NCBI GenBank assembly: GCA_964424775.1
Contig: CAYRJZ010000006.1
Span: forward strand, 1-57,757
DNA: 57,757 nt
Direction of reading: 5' to 3'
From: an uncultured Gammaproteobacteria bacterium
Lineage (GTDB): Bacteria; Patescibacteriota; Microgenomatia; Levybacterales; UBA12049
In this document: in pieces, positions 26,137 to 36,250 of the stretch
How the letters are laid out: every line of letters begins with the position of its first letter
How positions within the stretch are numbered: position 1 is the stretch's first letter
Program-made: the position numbers and the translations under genes
Notes under the pieces: model-generated
Told to the model about the DNA's origin: nothing
Database searches by the model: none
The model's input: the letters and a program-made list of their open reading frames with translations, nothing else

Positions 26137-26165
26137 TTGACTCCCGAGTGATATTTCATTAATAT
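26137..26165 (+). promoter_or_regulatory. Sigma70 promoter TTGACT-17-TAATAT
   Basis: Near-consensus hexamers with 17-bp spacer, about 300 nt upstream of ATG 26468. Confidence 0.75.
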
Positions 26166-26184
26166 CTGCTCAGTGGGTATTAAC

Positions 26185-26205
26185 AGCCGACCGTCAGCGG
26201 AGGCA
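26185..26205 (+). promoter_or_regulatory. Leader motif copy 1 (AGCCGACCGTCAGCGGAGGCA)
   Basis: 18/21 identical to the minus-strand copy at 35255-35275; contains a CCG-N4-CGG hairpin. Confidence 0.7.
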
Positions 26206-26334
26206 AGTAGTTCAGTTTTTCCTAAAACTAACTACATCAGGCAACATCCCGAGAAGTGCACTAACAGCTGAATATATATTTGTATGCTCATTACCTGCCC
26301 GGTATCATACTGTCATTTGGTTGAAAATAACACT

Positions 26335-26377
26335 AACCCCTTATATCCGGTGTTGGAGGGATATGAGGGGTTTTTTT
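26335..26377 (+). terminator. Intrinsic terminator inside the 5' leader (attenuator candidate)
   Basis: 12-bp stem CCCCTTATATCC/GGATATGAGGGG followed by T7, between promoter and first gene. Confidence 0.8.
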
Positions 26378-26467
26378 GTGCTCAGAACCCCTCTCTCATT
26401 ATGTCCCGAGTTGAAGAATAATAAGAGGGGGGAGAATTTATCCTACCTATGAAAGGAGGTGAAAATA

Positions 26468-29622: not shown

Positions 29623-30180
29623 TTACTTCATATCTGCAAAGATAAGAAGTCTTTTCCAGTCTGTGCCAATTGGTGTGCATGTTTGAAGAATCAGATGATG
29701 TTTTGATTCTTTCAGAAGATAGTTAACTTCTGTGGGAAAGACTTCTTTTTTATTTTTTACTAAGTACGAATATTCTTTCCCCTCATACATAATTTTTATG
29801 TGATCATTAAGTTTCAGCTCGTTTAAGCGTAGAAAAACTGAGTTGTATCTTGTAATTTCCCAAGGCATTCCGGATGAATGAGCAAAGAGAAATATTGTTC
29901 CGTTTTCCCCAGGAAGTGACGTATTTTTTGCATGCGCAATTCCACGTTTCAGTGCCCCCATGTACTCGTCCCTATTAAATGGATCGACATTTTTAAGAAC
30001 AATACCTTCTGCTTTAATTGTAGGTATTACTAATGTAAATGATTGTGATTTTTCTTGTGCAGTAAGCTGTCGTGGAAAAAAATATGCACTCAGGACTGGA
30101 TAAAAAATTAAAACAAAACCGAAAAGTGAGGCAATAATAAGAATTGTTCCCAAATAATAAGAAATTGAACGCTTTTTCAT
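29623..30180 (-). CDS. Sortase (start probably ATG 30180)
   Basis: N-terminal TM; His (FAHSS), Cys (LQTCTP) and Arg (KRLL) triad. Confidence 0.92.
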   Translation of the reverse strand: MKKRSISYYLGTILIIASLFGFVLIFYPVLSAYFFPRQLTAQEKSQSFTLVIPTIKAEGIVLKNVDPFNRDEYMGALKRGIAHAKNTSLPGENGTIFLFAHSSGMPWEITRYNSVFLRLNELKLNDHIKIMYEGKEYSYLVKNKKEVFPTEVNYLLKESKHHLILQTCTPIGTDWKRLLIFADMK

Positions 30181-30216
30181 AAGGAGAATATTATAAGACA
30201 AGCATGTATTGAAAGC

Positions 30217-30240
30217 AAAAAAAATCCCCCGAAGGGGATT
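30217..30240 (-). terminator. Intrinsic terminator after the LPATG protein
   Basis: AATCCCC-TTCG-GGGGATT followed by T tract on the minus strand. Confidence 0.85.
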
Positions 30241-30243
30241 TCA

Positions 30244-31359
30244 CTATGCAAGTACAAAACCTGGTGACCTTCCGGATCTCAGTCTTAACACCGCACCAAA
30301 GAGGAGCATCAATAGATTGCCTAGAATAGCTAATAAGATCCAAGGATTTCCAGTAGCTGGAAGTACCTCACCAGTTGTTGTACCGAGTACACTGCCACCT
30401 GTTGGGTTGCTACCTCCAGTTGGATTGGTAGGTCCATTACCACCTGTTGGTGGATTTTCTGGCTCTTCAGGTTTTTCTGGTTCTTCAGGCTCTTCAGGTT
30501 CTTTATCACAGTTACAGTCAACTTTTACGACATTGTCGTTAATGTTATTCTCAATAAGAGCATCAAGGTCAATATCACCAGTTTTGATACTAACATCCCC
30601 GTTATTATCATCAGCAGTATTTTCACCTGTAAATAAGTTCCAGACACTATTATTGAAAATATCTGCGATATTATTTACGTTTACATTATTAACAGAATTA
30701 TTAAAGAAATTAACGTTATTAATACTCCCTGCGCCATTACCAGTGATGATAAGTGAAATACCGCCAAATGCTGATGTATTAAGCTGAACATAGGAACTGT
30801 TGACGTTATTAACAATCTTCTCACTTACTTTAATATTTCCTGTTTGAATTGAAACATTTCCACTATTTCCATTTGCAGTATTTCGACCAGTAATTGCTGT
30901 TCCATACACATTTGTTGTCACATGAGCTGTATTTGTAACAGTGACATTATTAGTAGTATTTGATCCATAATTAATTGTGTTGTTGGATTCAGAACCATTT
31001 CCAGAAATTTCCGCGGTACCTCCAGCAGACTGGCAACATCCTGTTTCAACATGTGACTGATTGAGTGTGTTGTTTACTTGAGTTGCTGTTGAAGAATCAC
31101 CCGATGAAATATTTGTATTCCCACCAGTGTTATCTGATGCTGAATTATCTCCAGTACTGCTGTTCGTTGTAACATCATTTGTGACTTCTGCTGTGTTATT
31201 CTGCTGGACTGTCGTGTTATTTGATGTCGTAACACTGATATCACTATTTGAACCACTTCCGTTTCCAGAAATGCTCAATTCTTCAGCTTGTACCGTTTTA
31301 ACTGATAAAGGCAAAACAGTTGCTGTTACTAATGCCAATAGTATTTTTTGTTTTTGCAT
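30244..31359 (-). CDS. Secreted N/G/T/S-rich repeat protein (3 repeats) with LPATG sorting signal
   Basis: Signal peptide, GNGSGS repeats, EPEEPE/PTGG linker, VLPATG + TM + RLR tail. Confidence 0.85.
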   Translation of the reverse strand: MQKQKILLALVTATVLPLSVKTVQAEELSISGNGSGSNSDISVTTSNNTTVQQNNTAEVTNDVTTNSSTGDNSASDNTGGNTNISSGDSSTATQVNNTLNQSHVETGCCQSAGGTAEISGNGSESNNTINYGSNTTNNVTVTNTAHVTTNVYGTAITGRNTANGNSGNVSIQTGNIKVSEKIVNNVNSSYVQLNTSAFGGISLIITGNGAGSINNVNFFNNSVNNVNVNNIADIFNNSVWNLFTGENTADDNNGDVSIKTGDIDLDALIENNINDNVVKVDCNCDKEPEEPEEPEKPEEPENPPTGGNGPTNPTGGSNPTGGSVLGTTTGEVLPATGNPWILLAILGNLLMLLFGAVLRLRSGRSPGFVLA

Positions 31360-31430
31360 AAAGTACTAAAAGTGTATACTTTTTTCTCTATTTACTGTTA
31401 GAGAAAATACAGAGGCAGATTATTTAATTG

Positions 31431-33614
31431 TTAGGCAGTTCGTCTATTGAGTACAAATCTTCGACTGAGATATGCACCTGCGAGGACAGGAAGCAGGAGC
31501 ATAGCCCAAGCTAAATTAATTCGAATGACATTTCTTTTTGCTGCATCAACAACAGAGTATGAAGCACCTTTCACTTGTGGTGTAGGCTGTGCAGAACCAT
31601 TACTATCAGTTAGGACAGCAACGTTTCCATTTCCGGTGTTCTGTGATGTAACAGTGTTGTTTGCATCTCCACTCCCGACAAGTGCAATTGTTTTTTGTTG
31701 TGTAACGACTGTTGGAGTAGGGGTAGGTACAGATTTGGTAGTTTCATTATTATCACTAGCTCCACCAATGTTATTACTATTATTTTGTGCTTGTGCAGTA
31801 TTTTCTTTTTTCTGACCAGGAGTTACGAAGTCGCCAAGCCAACTTCCAAAGACATTGACGACGGTTACGACGAGCTTACCGTTGCCTGCTATGTTGTTAT
31901 TAACAAAGTTCACCATGTTCGCTACGATATTAGCATCTCCAGTTGTGATATTAGAGTTGCCACCTGTATTTTTACTTGTGCTATTACCACCTGTGTTAGC
32001 TGAAAGATTTAGGTTGTTTACAATATCTGCATTATTGTCTTGAACAGTTGTTGAGTTATTGGTAACACTTGATGATGCGTCATTTGTTGATCCTGCACCA
32101 TTGCCAGTATTGGTAACGGTGATAAAGCCATTTTCATCAATAGTGTAGTCTGTACCTTGCACAGCTGCAAACTTTGTTCCCTCAGGTGCACCCATTATTT
32201 TACCCATCCAGTTACCAGCTTCATTGACAAGAACTATCCACCAATTACCGCCTGCAAGATTCATGTTCGCAATGTTAAGAACATTCGCGTCGATATTTGT
32301 ATCACCTGTTTTAATAGTACTGTTGCCACCAGTGTTATCACTTGCTGAGTTCTCACCAGTTGACGCATCAAAGATAAGATTGTTAGTAATATTTGCATCA
32401 TTCTCCTGGAATGTATTTGTATTATTTGTCGTTGATGAATTTGCTGTATTTGTAGAGCCAGAGCCATTCCCTGAATTAAGTGCTGTTGTTCCAAGTGCAT
32501 CAAATTGTGATTCGTCAAAGATAAGGTCCCCGATAAGATCACCAAAGATATTGACGACACCAAAGACTACATTTCCAGCGAGATTGTTGTTCGCAAAGGT
32601 AAGAACATTCGCTGCAACGTTTGCATCACCTGTCTCAATATTTGAGTCTCCACCTGTGTTTTTATTTGCCGTGTTATTACCTGAATCTGCTGAGAGATTT
32701 AAGTCGTTACCAATAAGTGCATCGTTCATTTGATACGTATTACTGTTATTTGTTACATCAGTATCAGCAGTGTTCTCACTGTCAACACCGTTTCCAGTGT
32801 TTCCTGCAAAGAGACTTCCCGTGCCACCACATCCTGAGACGCATGCAGCTCCAAAGTCAAGAACAATATCTCCAACATGATCATCAACGACATTGAATTC
32901 TGAGACCATAATTCCATCAGCATTCGTGTTAACGGATGTGATAACAGTTCCTGTTGTATTAGCATCACCAGTATTAATAGATGAATCTCCAACATTTTTA
33001 GAAGTGTCATTCTGACCGGTTACTGTTGCACCTGTAAGATTACTATTTACAACAGCTGCGTTATTTTGATACGTATTATCATTATTGACGACAGCCGCGG
33101 AACCGTTATTTGTTGAGTCTGCGCCATTACCAGAGTTAACAACGGTTGCTCCAGAACCTGACGTTCCTGCAGGAGATGTAGATGTATTGTTGTTACCTGC
33201 TGTAGAAATAATTCCTGATGATACAGCATCACCAGTCTTGACTTCGCTTGAACCGACCTGTCCGCTTTGCTGTTCATTTGCTGCAGCTTGTGTTGGAGTA
33301 GGGGTAGGAGTTGATTTCGTAGATGATGATTCTGTATTACTATTTTGCTCTTCAACTTCTTCTTGTTCTTCCTCTTCATCATCACTGTCATTATTTTGAA
33401 CATCACTAACAGCCTGTTCTACTGTTGGTGCAGTTGGCGCTGTTGGAGCACTTGGTGCTGTCGGTGCTGCAGGAGCTGTTGGAGCACTAGGCGCTGTAGG
33501 TGCAGTTGGCGCTGTTGGAACTTCCTGAGCGAATACTCGTGCTGGAACAGTATGAACTGTTACCATCATGAAAATTATAAAGTATGCAGTAATTTCTTTT
33601 AATATATTTGTCAT
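31431..33614 (-). CDS. Large secreted repeat protein (about 4 repeats) with C-terminal TM anchor
   Basis: Signal peptide, (APT)n linker, GNGxxS...NTGG...TGDA repeats, QVKGAS motif, TM and RR tail. Confidence 0.85.
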   Translation of the reverse strand: MTNILKEITAYFIIFMMVTVHTVPARVFAQEVPTAPTAPTAPSAPTAPAAPTAPSAPTAPTAPTVEQAVSDVQNNDSDDEEEEQEEVEEQNSNTESSSTKSTPTPTPTQAAANEQQSGQVGSSEVKTGDAVSSGIISTAGNNNTSTSPAGTSGSGATVVNSGNGADSTNNGSAAVVNNDNTYQNNAAVVNSNLTGATVTGQNDTSKNVGDSSINTGDANTTGTVITSVNTNADGIMVSEFNVVDDHVGDIVLDFGAACVSGCGGTGSLFAGNTGNGVDSENTADTDVTNNSNTYQMNDALIGNDLNLSADSGNNTANKNTGGDSNIETGDANVAANVLTFANNNLAGNVVFGVVNIFGDLIGDLIFDESQFDALGTTALNSGNGSGSTNTANSSTTNNTNTFQENDANITNNLIFDASTGENSASDNTGGNSTIKTGDTNIDANVLNIANMNLAGGNWWIVLVNEAGNWMGKIMGAPEGTKFAAVQGTDYTIDENGFITVTNTGNGAGSTNDASSSVTNNSTTVQDNNADIVNNLNLSANTGGNSTSKNTGGNSNITTGDANIVANMVNFVNNNIAGNGKLVVTVVNVFGSWLGDFVTPGQKKENTAQAQNNSNNIGGASDNNETTKSVPTPTPTVVTQQKTIALVGSGDANNTVTSQNTGNGNVAVLTDSNGSAQPTPQVKGASYSVVDAAKRNVIRINLAWAMLLLPVLAGAYLSRRFVLNRRTA
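33421..33520 (-). repeat. 9-bp-unit coding tandem repeat (PTA/PSA/PAA)n
   Basis: Encodes VPTAPTAPTAPSAPTAPAAPTAPSAPTAPTAPT. Confidence 0.8.
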
Positions 33615-33645
33615 AATTTTTAAAATATTATTTATTTAATTTCTA

Positions 33646-33700
33646 TATAAGAGTGTGGGGTGCTAATGGAAGTGCTCATCGACACCCCACAGTTCTTATA
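33646..33700. other. Long intergenic stem-loop between first and second repeat-protein genes
   Basis: TATAAGA-TGTGGGGTG pairs with CACCCCACA-TCTTATA; no U tract. Confidence 0.7.
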
Positions 33701-33702
33701 TC

Positions 33703-34938
33703 TTAGTTGTTACTAGCCCACCAAGACATGAACATACTCCACATGTTTAAATTCATGTCGAAGTCAAAGTCAAAGTCTGGAAGGTCAGCTGAGCCGATAA
33801 CGTTTTGGTTGCCTGCGTTTTTAACAGTAACCTCAGCATCTGAGTCTCCAGTTTCGATAGATGGATCAGAGATCGCATCTACTTCTCCTGTGTTGTCATC
33901 TGCATCGTTATCGCCTGTATCTCCGTCAACGTCGAGATCATTGTCGAGATCTGAATAGTTATCTTGGAAAAGACTTGCAGTCTCATCAAAGTTACCATAG
34001 ATATCGTTGTCTGAATCTGAACCGTTTCCGTTGATCTTTGCGAGTACGTCAAAGACGCATCCGCATCCTGCATCTGCAGCGTTAAAGTTAACCATGTTGT
34101 CAACTGTAACATCAGCATCAGCATCACCTGTGTCGATCATTACATCGCCACCTGTGTTGTCGTCTGCAGAATTGTCGCCTGTATCAGCATCTACGTCAAC
34201 GTCGTTATCAACATCTGCATTGTTATCTTGTGTGAGAACGAGTGCATTGTCGAAGTTGAGGTCGATTTCGTTGTCTGAATCAGAGCCGTTTCCGAGGATG
34301 TATGCTGAAACGAGTCCAGCTTCATCATCACCACCACCTACAACTGCTGAATTTGCATTAGCAGCTGTCATGATTTTAACGGTTGTGTCAGCGTCACCAG
34401 TTTCGATTTCTACATCTCCACCAGTGTTGTCATCTGCATCGTTGTCCCCAGTTTCTGCGTCAACGTCAACGTCGTTGTCGACATCAGCGTTGTTGTATTG
34501 GAAGACATTAGTTGTTGAATTGTTAGAAAGGTCTACATCATTATCTGAATCAGAACCATTTCCTGAAATAACAACCTTTGTATCACCAGTACAATTACCG
34601 CATCCACTTACATCAGCAGCATTACTATTAAGCTGGTTTTTGACTGTAACATTTGTTGAAGCATCACCTGTGTTAACTTTTACATTACCACCTGTGTTAC
34701 CTGAAGCTGAGTTATCGCCAGTTGTAGCGTTAACAGTTACGTTATTACTAACGTTAGCTGTGTTGTTTTGAACAACGTTAAGTGAACTTGATTGTGAAAC
34801 ATTTGCAGTATTGTTAGATCCTGATCCGTTTCCAGAAAGAGTGATCTCAGTAGCTGCAAGTGTCATTGGAGCTAAAGCATGGAGTAAGACTGATCCGGTT
34901 GCGATAGCTGTTGCGATTCGTGTTTTGTAATTTGTCAT
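33703..34938 (-). CDS. Secreted Asp/Asn-rich repeat protein (4 repeats of about 89 aa), major-subunit candidate (start ATG 34938)
   Basis: SD AAAGGGGG; signal peptide similar to that of 28173; four GNGSxS...Q.N.A.V.N.V...TGDNxAxxNTGG...TGDA units. Confidence 0.85.
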   Translation of the reverse strand: MTNYKTRIATAIATGSVLLHALAPMTLAATEITLSGNGSGSNNTANVSQSSSLNVVQNNTANVSNNVTVNATTGDNSASGNTGGNVKVNTGDASTNVTVKNQLNSNAADVSGCGNCTGDTKVVISGNGSDSDNDVDLSNNSTTNVFQYNNADVDNDVDVDAETGDNDADDNTGGDVEIETGDADTTVKIMTAANANSAVVGGGDDEAGLVSAYILGNGSDSDNEIDLNFDNALVLTQDNNADVDNDVDVDADTGDNSADDNTGGDVMIDTGDADADVTVDNMVNFNAADAGCGCVFDVLAKINGNGSDSDNDIYGNFDETASLFQDNYSDLDNDLDVDGDTGDNDADDNTGEVDAISDPSIETGDSDAEVTVKNAGNQNVIGSADLPDFDFDFDMNLNMWSMFMSWWASNN

Positions 34939-35036
34939 TATATTTGTCACCCCCTTTCTTGACTATGATTCCGTTTCCACCAAATGGTGAATTGGGCACT
35001 TCATCCGCTTTCCTGTCTAAGGCCTGAGGCTTGGAC

Positions 35037-35092
35037 AAAAAAACGGAAACATATCCTTCTAAATTACTTAGGAAGATGTGCTTCCGCTTTTT
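35037..35092 (-). terminator. Second leader terminator (attenuator candidate)
   Basis: GCGGAAGCACATCTTCCTAA/TTAGAAGGATATGTTTCCGT imperfect stem followed by T7. Confidence 0.75.
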
Positions 35093-35215: not shown

Positions 35216-35258
35216 AAAAAAAGGCACCGTCATTTCTAATCATTTAGAAATAGGTGCC
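35216..35258 (-). terminator. First leader terminator, overlapping the leader motif
   Basis: GGCACC-ATTTCTAA/TTAGAAAT-GGTGCC followed by T7; 5' arm begins inside the GGAGGCA of the motif. Confidence 0.8.
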
Positions 35259-35275
35259 TCCGTTTACGGTCAGCT
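35255..35275 (-). promoter_or_regulatory. Leader motif copy 2 (AGCTGACCGTAAACGGAGGCA)
   Basis: 18/21 identical to 26185-26205. Confidence 0.7.
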
Positions 35276-35318: not shown

Positions 35319-35347
35319 AATATAATTGAATAAAAAATGTATGTCAA
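35319..35347 (-). promoter_or_regulatory. Sigma70 promoter TTGACA-17-TATATT
   Basis: Near-consensus promoter immediately downstream of the YezD-like gene. Confidence 0.75.
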
Positions 35348-35356
35348 TACCCAAAA

Positions 35357-35554
35357 TTATATTTTTACAGTATGCCCATTAGGAATATGTGAATTTGTCT
35401 TTTTGATATTGCGCTCTGTAATTTGAACAACTTTATAGTCCTGTACGTAGATCTCGACGCTTCCCCAACCGCGGATATTATTTAATGCTTCAACAATTTC
35501 TGCAATAAGTTCAGGACTAATTTTATTCATTGTCTTAGTTGTCTTTGTATTCAT
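35357..35554 (-). CDS. YezD/DUF2292-like small protein (alternative start 35530)
   Basis: IVEALNNIRGWGSVEIYVQDYKVVQITERN matches the recalled DUF2292 pattern (I..I..GSVEI.VQDG.V.QI). Confidence 0.7.
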   Translation of the reverse strand: MNTKTTKTMNKISPELIAEIVEALNNIRGWGSVEIYVQDYKVVQITERNIKKTNSHIPNGHTVKI

Positions 35555-35586: not shown

Positions 35587-36204
35587 CTACTTAGTAAGAT
35601 TTAACTTAATTGTTTCTTTCTTACCTGTAAGTTCACCTACAAGAAGAGTAAGATTTTTATCTGAATCATTTATTGGGAATCCAAGTCGAGTTGGTTTGGT
35701 TGAGTCAGCTAAAATCTCAACAGGGTCGTTATGAATATCTGCTGCAATTTTTTCGCTACTATTATTAACTGTCAATCGAACATAATCTCGTGCATTTACA
35801 GCGATCGTTTTATTATATGAGTTCGTAATTTTAGCATTGAGAATTAAAAATGTTCTTCCTTCAACAGAGATTGCTCTTTTTCCTTTTACAATAACTTCGT
35901 CACGAATTTCAGCATTTTCAAGGACAAATTTTAATTTACTTACTTCTTTTCCATTCGTGTCTTTAAGTGAGAATTCGTATGTTTTATTAAGATTTTGGGT
36001 TGCTTCTGGTTTGGCAATTGTTACTTTTGTACTATTATCACCAACTGCAATTGTTTCTTTATTACTATTTGCAACTGCGAAGAAAAGTGCACCTAAAATT
36101 AGAAGAGCTGCGATAAGTCCTGGGAAGAAAAACTTTTGTCGAGTAATTTTTTTGTAGTCAAATTTATGTAATGAGTGATCCATATCTATAAAAAAACTCT
36201 GCAA
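35587..36204 (-). CDS. Membrane-anchored Ig-fold protein, possibly DUF4352-like
   Basis: TM followed by FLILNAKITN and V.I.ADST...LGF patterns. Confidence 0.55.
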   Translation of the reverse strand: MQSFFIDMDHSLHKFDYKKITRQKFFFPGLIAALLILGALFFAVANSNKETIAVGDNSTKVTIAKPEATQNLNKTYEFSLKDTNGKEVSKLKFVLENAEIRDEVIVKGKRAISVEGRTFLILNAKITNSYNKTIAVNARDYVRLTVNNSSEKIAADIHNDPVEILADSTKPTRLGFPINDSDKNLTLLVGELTGKKETIKLNLTK

Positions 36205-36250
36205 GGGGCAGAGCAGTATGGCCGGATATTACCAAGGAAAATTTGATGTG

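Follow-up and report, generated by a model that had tools for sequence, protein, structure and literature searches.

Two strands of work on sulfur metabolism in other bacteria come close to the system treated here. In the supplement of Naville & Gautheret (2010, PMC2965389), a candidate attenuator named 'ssuB-ABC-leader' is given for the Bacillus cereus group, along with an ssuB leader of B. licheniformis, and the hairpin in those leaders is labelled 'anti-terminator ?' by the authors; the B. subtilis ssu genes, according to van der Ploeg et al. (2001, PMID 11251850), are regulated at both initiation and termination. The second strand concerns the small proteins of the DUF2292 family, of which OscA (Pseudomonas corrugata, PA0284-type) and YezD (B. 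subtilis) have been characterised by phenotype: CymR and Spx repress yezD (PMC3479203), sbp and oscA together make up a sulfate-starvation unit (PMC2996968), and the literature mentioning DUF2292 assigns no mechanism to the family. Here we analyse a DUF2292 gene and the leader that follows it in a stretch of 57,757 nucleotides (nt) from a Microgenomates bacterium of the Candidate Phyla Radiation (CPR), contig CAYRJZ010000006.1, which is referred to as the window at its full length. We propose, at roughly even odds in our own estimation, that the encoded protein is an antiterminator that binds a short hairpin, P1, fused to an intrinsic terminator, T1. Individual loci are designated by L numbers. 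The elements of the minus-strand locus, in the direction of transcription, are the following:

35587..36204, minus strand: upstream partner gene for a membrane protein, likely start ATG at 36183 (alignment, Pfam, AlphaFold2 model)
35357..35554, minus strand: intact open reading frame (ORF) for a DUF2292/YezD-family small protein of 65 amino acids (aa) (ORF list, Pfam PF10055)
35319..35347, minus strand: promoter of the repeat-protein operon, TTGACA-17-TATATT (11/12 match)
35256..35274, minus strand: P1 hairpin, GCU-GA-CCG-UAAA-CGG-A-GGC, candidate antiterminator and candidate protein site (covariation, folding)
35216..35259, minus strand: intrinsic terminator T1, 3' arm GGUGCCU followed by U7 (folding, pair table)
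35037..35087, minus strand: intrinsic terminator T2, GCGGAAGCAC...GUUUCCG followed by U7 (folding)
29623..34950, minus strand: operon for three paralogous secreted Asn/Gly/Thr-repeat proteins (415, 727 and 371 aa, the last with LPATG), then a sortase

An earlier, sequence-only reading of this DNA had placed the end of the DUF2292 gene 10 bp upstream of a promoter whose leader carries a conserved motif and terminators. Both statements are borne out: the stop codon (TAA, 35359-35357) and the -35 hexamer, which starts at 35347, are separated by 9 nt, and the leader holds T1, T2 and the motif GCTGACCGTAAACGGAGGCACC at 35274-35253 on the minus strand, a match to which occurs in none of 100 shuffles. 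The site at 35347 has the best promoter-like (sigma-70-like) score in a 10-kb scan, and most Levybacteria-type loci present cTTGACAag-17/18-TATAKT 20-60 nt 5' of the hairpin. The leader itself (35318 to 34951, minus strand, 368 nt) folds far better than its shuffles (z = -4.3). Scanning the window with Rfam 15 at gathering thresholds returned tRNAs only, permissive Rfam scans of this leader and of a second one on the plus strand gave only sub-threshold chance matches, and inspection revealed no boxA-like word beside P1. The public sequencing runs that contain the stretch are all DNA metagenomes.

P1 spans 19 nt: a free tetraloop caps an inner 3-bp helix, which a GA/A internal loop separates from an outer helix, also of 3 bp. 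Its pairing was evaluated over 44 distinct instances, with 500 shuffles and slid alignments as controls, and is maintained in 98.9% of cells, a figure equalled by none of the shuffles (0/500) and set against 23-50% in the slid alignments. Three of the six pairs have changed on both sides; the counts are G-C 34 and A-U 8 for pair 1-19, C-G 41 and U-A 2 for 2-18, U.G 20, C-G 13 and U-A 10 for 3-17, and C-G 43 and G-C 1 for 6-15, with an invariant GA/A internal loop and inner-stem C-G. P1 is a real hairpin, backed by compensatory changes. Its distance from the promoter varies (~+8 to +70) and its junction with the terminator is fixed, which points to an element acting at the RNA level and not to a DNA operator. 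Two other interpretations of the same letters were discarded. CCG-N4-CGG as a DNA operator is at odds with an element that is asymmetric, always in operon orientation and terminator-fixed at variable promoter distance, and whose outer stem covaries; GGAGG as the ribosome-binding (Shine-Dalgarno) site of a leader peptide lacks, on inspection, a conserved start codon at a workable distance.

The 5' arm of T1 (AGGCACC...) starts within P1, and the 3' strand of P1 (A-R-G-Y-A) is at the same time the base of that arm and covaries with the T1 3' arm: R14 is paired as G-C in 49 and A-U in 17 cases, Y16 as C-G in 59 and U-A in 11. This strict overlap recurs in ~75 instances. The free energy of P1 in the window is -5.5 kcal/mol, and the T1 fold reaches -26.3 kcal/mol versus -15.3 kcal/mol when P1 is forced. 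P1 and T1 are mutually exclusive and, because its 3' strand doubles as the 5' base of T1, P1 is a weak antiterminator-type structure that needs assistance to prevail. Of the leaders scanned, 40 contain two terminators, and across some 40 related leaders the base of T2 is conserved as aaaaACGGARR...YYUCCG followed by U7; in the upstream leaders of Gottesmanbacteria, T2 is a different conserved hairpin, ACACUC...GAGUGU followed by U7.

The association between the protein family and this structure was surveyed across the Microgenomates. A one-genome-per-species scan provided 64 loci from Levy-, Gottesman-, Roizman-, Woese- and Daviesbacteria, to which exact look-ups added Chisholm- and Curtissbacteria and other loci. 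Among the 73 distinct DUF2292 loci with enough downstream sequence, P1 and a U-run are found within 250 nt of the DUF2292 stop in 70 and within 1300 nt in 71; the linked loci come from Levy-, Gottesman-, Roizman-, Woese-, Davies- and Chisholmbacteria, with protein identities as low as 45%, and 80 instances of P1 plus terminator are contained in 1.02 Mb. The motif that the earlier reading had proposed to look for 3' of DUF2292 genes is present in these 70 of 73 loci and, as described below, family and motif also co-occur in the Bacillus cereus group. The exceptions are informative in their own terms. L024 has lost the whole repeat-protein operon and keeps the CGGAGG terminator alone. In L191 (Curtissbacteria, L191:5001-6320), a 79-aa DUF2292 gene overlaps the start (ATGA) of a translationally coupled 205-aa gene, and P1 lies after the latter, 985 nt 3' of DUF2292, inside a long near-perfect palindrome without a U-tract in which the P1 pattern matches both strands. 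Sampling centred on the repeat proteins stayed within Microgenomates and contributed one locus without DUF2292, L188 (L188:4654-5130), where the membrane-protein gene and the repeat operon are present and DUF2292, promoter, P1 and T1 are all absent, an AT-rich spacer standing in their place; T2 is kept, the lineage is represented on 19 contigs, and the gene caller extended the repeat protein 40 codons into the leader. A motif-centred metagenome scan (CTGACCGNNNNCGGAGGCA) yielded mostly chance matches in high-GC coding DNA, with L181, L151 and perhaps L088 looking real.

Extra P1/terminator copies precede paralogous secreted repeat-protein genes that have no DUF2292 gene next to them, both in the window and in relatives, a distribution that fits action in trans. 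At position 6278 of L048, for instance, a P1 copy with its own promoter is found in a divergent intergenic region with no co-directional upstream gene. In Gottesmanbacteria one P1/terminator unit lies 5' of the membrane-protein/DUF2292 pair and a second one 10-45 nt 3' of the DUF2292 stop, with no promoter between, so that the candidate regulator is flanked by its candidate targets. A third variant of P1 (AUCGACCG...CGGAG[GA]U) occurs 3' of the sortase gene in this group (L039:13414, L050:13185, L037:13249, L038:13161); its 3' strand pairs with a distal ACCUCCG, there is no good U-tract, and it may act on something other than intrinsic termination. The extra copy in the window belongs to a second leader, on the plus strand, which serves a convergent operon encoding two repeat proteins, one secreted, of the RTX type and 549 aa long, the other of 200 aa:

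26137..26378, plus strand: second leader (promoter, P1 copy, terminator)
26137-26165, plus strand: promoter, TTGACT-17-TAATAT
26186-26204, plus strand: P1 copy, GCCGACCGUCAGCGGAGGC, -6.7 kcal/mol
26207-26235, plus strand: hairpin without a U-tract
~26336-26378, plus strand: true terminator, ~150 nt 3' of P1

Beyond the CPR, tblastn searches of plasmids with the CPR protein and with P0387 returned nothing useful, and a hand-made canonical DUF2292 consensus led to seven annotated replicons. Two of them, B. mycoides p31 and Bacillus sp. N5-665, encode a 47-aa YezD (68 bits); 6 nt after its stop, without an intervening promoter, come the hairpin GCUGA-CUAG-AAAAA-CUAG-A-GGC and a terminator, directly 5' of cysH-sat-cysC. 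The link between YezD and the hairpin in Bacillus was examined at this yezD-cysH locus only. The Bacillus sulfur regulon and the CPR surface-fibre regulon share only the DUF2292 gene and a terminator-fused hairpin, and the simplest reading is hence that the two are partners. More generally, and with confidence a little short of even, DUF2292 proteins (YezD/OscA) may be minimal RNA-binding antiterminators of ~50-65 aa found across phyla, with a GCUGA-stem-loop-A-GGC hairpin fused to a terminator as their cognate site; the Firmicutes pair would gate sulfur assimilation, and the Microgenomates pair would have been rewired to a sortase-linked surface fibre or coat operon and its satellite genes. 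As a separate observation, yezD in two B. cereus group loci (L195:2780-2960 and L198) is preceded by an apparent S-box (SAM-I) riboswitch with its own terminator, and the cysH operon would accordingly follow two switches in series, in the order SAM riboswitch, yezD, GCUGA-hairpin/terminator, cysH.

The window protein matches Pfam PF10055 (DUF2292) with 29.9 bits against a gathering threshold of 22 (E 4e-7), residues 17-45 aligning to positions 2-29 of the 37 in the profile; its relatives in L189 and L191 score 22-24 bits and the canonical Bacillus YezD 68 bits. Against the OscA equivalog model, NCBIfam NF033785, it scores 21.4 bits for a cut-off of 85, and by these profile scores it is related to OscA without being an OscA equivalog. 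Translation from an alternative start, M9 (35530), would give 57 aa, the length of the cluster representative P0001. The 538 homologues of the window protein are all from the CPR, and its subfamily is small and CPR-specific, with 337 representatives among 1.84 billion proteins, every one of which carries a [YWF]GS[VI]E...QIT.R.IKKT core; the invariant core reads NIRGWGSVEI..VQ..VVQITERNIKKT. In an AlphaFold2 (AF2) model of moderate confidence (predicted local distance difference test score, pLDDT, 72), a helix (14-25) packs on a β-hairpin (30-38, 41-50), and invariant residues (Trp30, Ser32, Glu34 and Gln38; Gln44, Arg48, Asn49 and Lys52) occupy exposed strand positions. With an isoelectric point of 8.1-9.5, the modelled strand face would be compatible with a nucleic-acid-binding surface, which is not to say that it proves one. 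DUF2292 is also the only predicted cytoplasmic, non-structural protein kept in the gene cluster. Intact, conserved DUF2292 ORFs have been left uncalled in public assemblies (L187:4229-4402, L190:2098-2259), which indicates that small-gene filters hide members of the family. In Levybacteria-type loci the stop codon TGA often falls inside the -35 hexamer (tcTTGAca; e.g. L003-L034), with ...VKIGS* written as aaaattgggtcTTGAca; since this C-terminal ...VKIGS is encoded by promoter-upstream DNA, the conservation of the tail may partly reflect the promoter.

The mechanism that we favour may be sketched as follows. RNA polymerase (RNAP) starting at the strong promoter just 3' of the gene would transcribe P1 first and the 3' arm of T1 afterwards; unaided, P1 would be displaced by the far more stable T1 and transcription would stop. 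DUF2292, probably as an oligomer, would bind and stabilise P1 through the conserved Trp/Tyr/Arg/Lys face of its β-hairpin, and the bound P1 would keep the AGGC(A) strand away from T1, allowing read-through into the surface-protein operon. Further transcripts led by P1, among them the plus-strand one at 26186, would be subject to the same action. What we infer here is that protein and RNA bind and which way the effect runs, and an antitermination of this kind, resembling LicT/SacY-RAT and unrelated to it, strikes us as having an even chance of being correct.

The sequence-only reading had likewise suggested a small factor acting in trans on both operons, and part of that suggestion stands: the tight linkage of protein and hairpin/terminator, the exclusivity of P1 and T1 and the extra P1 copies all fit it. 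Several observations, however, weigh against this proposal. The DUF2292 gene adjoins the hairpin, and synteny, or a single deletion in L188, could thus make the two occur and disappear together in the absence of a functional link. The ACGGAR stem base of P1/T1 recurs in T2, where the P1 5' half (GCUGACCG) is missing, and T2 is retained in L188, a lineage devoid of DUF2292 and P1/T1. In the plus-strand leader the hairpin next to P1 has no U-tract and the terminator is 150 nt away, so that occlusion by P1 cannot explain read-through there; binding at the motif alone accounts neither for T2 nor for this leader, and their misfit keeps a processive mode, or recognition of the hairpin by some other factor, in play. 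No co-variation between residues and nucleotides was seen, and in Daviesbacteria the stem has flipped from C-G to G-C without a private change in the protein. A Foldseek search against the PDB gave a best E of 1.8, with no match at E<=0.001, and hmmsearch of PDB sequences detected no relative of the protein; lacking an informative match, fold searches allow no functional inference. As for the idea that a CTGACC-hairpin-GGAGGC element often follows DUF2292 genes in other bacteria, it holds in 70 of 73 Microgenomates loci and in the Bacillus cereus group and fails in Paenibacillus, a Priestia plasmid and two Novosphingobium replicons, where no such hairpin follows the gene. The hairpin is in fact absent from four of the five independent non-CPR DUF2292 lineages examined, and a hairpin copy on a Bacillus plasmid has no DUF2292 gene within 3 kb.

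These observations bear unequally on the alternatives. It is conceivable, if on balance unlikely, that the P1/T1 switch has a different reader (a small ligand, an unlinked protein, a general elongation factor or, via GGAGG, the ribosome) and that DUF2292 serves the pathway in some other way, for instance as an accessory of the DUF4352 membrane protein on its cytoplasmic side or, in other phyla, as a small protein connected with sulfur. DUF2292 displays no fold or sequence sign of RNA binding and is always co-operonic with the membrane-protein gene, in several cases outside the CPR the DUF2292 gene closes a sulfate ABC operon at its 3' end and no hairpin is present, and the solitary Bacillus plasmid hairpin and the T2 of L188 would be natural under another reader. 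Such a reader would nonetheless have to be reconciled with a protein family and a hairpin that travel together in two unrelated regulons of two phyla. A hairpin of 19-21 nt with a free and too variable loop makes an implausible ligand pocket, the lack of a conserved start codon after GGAGG, noted above on inspection, speaks against the ribosome, and the cytoplasmic tail of the membrane partner is short and unconserved, so that an accessory role has no visible interface.

Processive antitermination typically acts on long operons that encode surface structures (RfaH, LoaP). The long surface-structure operons of these loci, the second terminator without P1 in 40 of the leaders scanned and the plus-strand leader, whose only true terminator is ~150 nt 3' of P1, would all suit a DUF2292 that loads at P1 and acts processively on RNAP, like lambda N at nut or LoaP, so that T1, T2 and distant terminators are ignored. 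We judge this improbable: the strict overlap of P1 and T1 in ~75 instances, with covariation, is a signature of structural competition, the protein bears no similarity to N, Q or NusG-type proteins, and T2 persists in the lineage without DUF2292. The direction of the effect cannot be read from sequence, and DUF2292 might instead be a negative factor, either binding the single-stranded P1 5' half or the ACGGAR base, a word found at the foot of both T1 and T2, and so favouring the terminator, or regulating, as a DNA-binding protein, the promoter with which the 3' end of its gene overlaps, where the C-terminal codons and stop run into the conserved -35/upstream region. We consider a negative role very unlikely: T1 is already ~11 kcal/mol more stable than P1 and needs no helper, hairpin and terminator keep a fixed geometry at a promoter distance of ~+8 to +70, and no promoter separates gene and hairpin in Gottesmanbacteria or Bacillus. 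Least credible of all is the absence of any regulation, with T1 as the plain terminator of the membrane-protein/DUF2292 transcript and the hairpin as an element of terminator efficiency or 3'-end stability. T1 is indeed the first terminator 3' of DUF2292, and directly follows the stop in Gottesmanbacteria and Bacillus; yet P1 copies exist with their own promoter and no co-directional upstream gene (L048 at 6278; the window at 26186), P1 excludes T1 instead of forming part of it, and a near-consensus promoter lies between gene and P1 in most loci.

The locus belongs to a conserved module in which a membrane protein of the DUF4352 type and DUF2292 are followed by P1/T1 (T2 being optional), two to three Asn/Gly/Thr-repeat secreted proteins and a sortase, and the order of three repeat-protein genes followed by the sortase gene 3' of P1/T1 is kept in most loci. 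A homologue of the membrane protein is encoded directly 5' of the DUF2292 gene in 56 of 60 loci. The protein consists of a basic N-terminal tail, short and variable, one transmembrane helix and a conserved extracytoplasmic β-sandwich of ~130 aa of the DUF4352 type, a Pfam match to which is obtained for 23 of 41 family members. Its AF2 model (pLDDT 89) is matched by Foldseek to B. anthracis 4les, C. difficile 5bxg and B. subtilis YxkC, YcdA and YjhA. With a cytoplasmic tail that is short and not conserved in the alignment, the protein is, as modelled, extracytoplasmic, and presents no visible signalling interface with DUF2292. Upstream of its gene, a terminator-like hairpin (GCUCUGCCCCUUGCAGAGU followed by U7; 36196-36214, minus strand) is located 13 nt 5' of the likely start, just after a promoter-like site at 36254-36226, and carries no P1. 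For many of the metagenome-assembled genomes that carry this Microgenomates-specific locus (L003, L006, L008 and others), the record title is 'uncultured Gammaproteobacteria bacterium'; the protein identity of the locus to Levybacteria is 65-78%, and the titles look like mislabels.

Should antitermination by DUF2292 prove correct, it would provide a molecular function for a widespread family, among whose members are YezD of B. subtilis and OscA, a protein of sulfur starvation and chromate resistance, and would add an uncatalogued RNA element and a new class of very small antiterminators unrelated to CAT/PRD, ANTAR, HutP, PyrR and NusG-type factors. The trans factor so far lacking from the termination-level control of Bacillus ssu/cys genes, noted in 2001, would then be identified, and the study of regulation in uncultured CPR bacteria would gain a rare point of entry, a switch that turns what is probably their main surface structure on and off.

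Judged by its parts, the system would be a variant of protein-dependent antitermination of which neither the searchable literature nor Rfam has a description, and its architecture is nearest to that of LicT, SacY, BglG and GlcT acting on ribonucleic antiterminator (RAT) sequences. There too the 5' base of a terminator is overlapped by a far weaker hairpin, imperfect and with an internal loop, and the regulator gene lies immediately 5' of hairpin, terminator and target operon (licT-bglPH, glcT-ptsG). The Gottesmanbacteria DUF2292 gene between two P1/terminator units recalls the t1-bglG-t2 arrangement of the bgl operon, the ~55-aa RNA-binding module that suffices in the LicT class is of comparable size, and sacX-sacY offers a parallel for a membrane protein encoded alongside the regulator. 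The components, however, differ. Those antiterminators carry a CAT and two PRD domains, whereas a Pfam scan of the window protein at E<=0.01 returns DUF2292 only, with no CAT/PRD and no NGN/KOW domain; the predicted helix plus β-hairpin contrasts with the four-stranded CAT sheet, P1 has 19 nt versus ~29 nt for the RAT and no sequence likeness to it, and the membrane partner is an extracytoplasmic DUF4352 β-sandwich where the known systems have a phosphotransferase-system (PTS) permease. With lambda N at nut (boxA-boxB) and with LoaP the locus has in common that a very small, basic protein is paired with a short hairpin of the leader, beside which single-stranded bases are conserved, that several terminators lie downstream and that the targets are long surface-structure operons; it differs from them in a protein without an arginine-rich motif or a NusG/KOW fold, in a leader without boxA, and in the overlap of P1 with the terminator, which processive systems do not need.

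OscA and YezD belong to the same Pfam family as the window protein, and their genes provide a further parallel in being small, directly 5' of an operon for extracytoplasmic proteins and co-expressed with it (oscA-sbp); the window protein belongs to the CPR subfamily with the QIT.R.IKKT tail, and its neighbours are surface-fibre genes, not sulfur genes. On the RNA side the likeness is to the ssuB-ABC-leader, in which GCUGA, a short stem, a loop of 4-5 nt, the second stem strand and A-GGC lead into the 5' arm of a terminator, as in GCUGAUUGGAGAAACCAAAGGCA... (B. cereus) and GCUGAUCGGUCAACCGAAGGCU... (B. licheniformis), each of which runs into its terminator. Compared by eye with these Bacillus sequences and with the spacer between yezD and cysH, the window copies at 35274-35256 and 26186-26204 fall into the same GCUGA-hairpin-AGGC/terminator class. 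The ssuB leaders control sulfonate and sulfur genes, with no trans factor named, whereas the CPR version has a 3-bp CCG/CGG inner stem and stands before operons for surface-repeat proteins.

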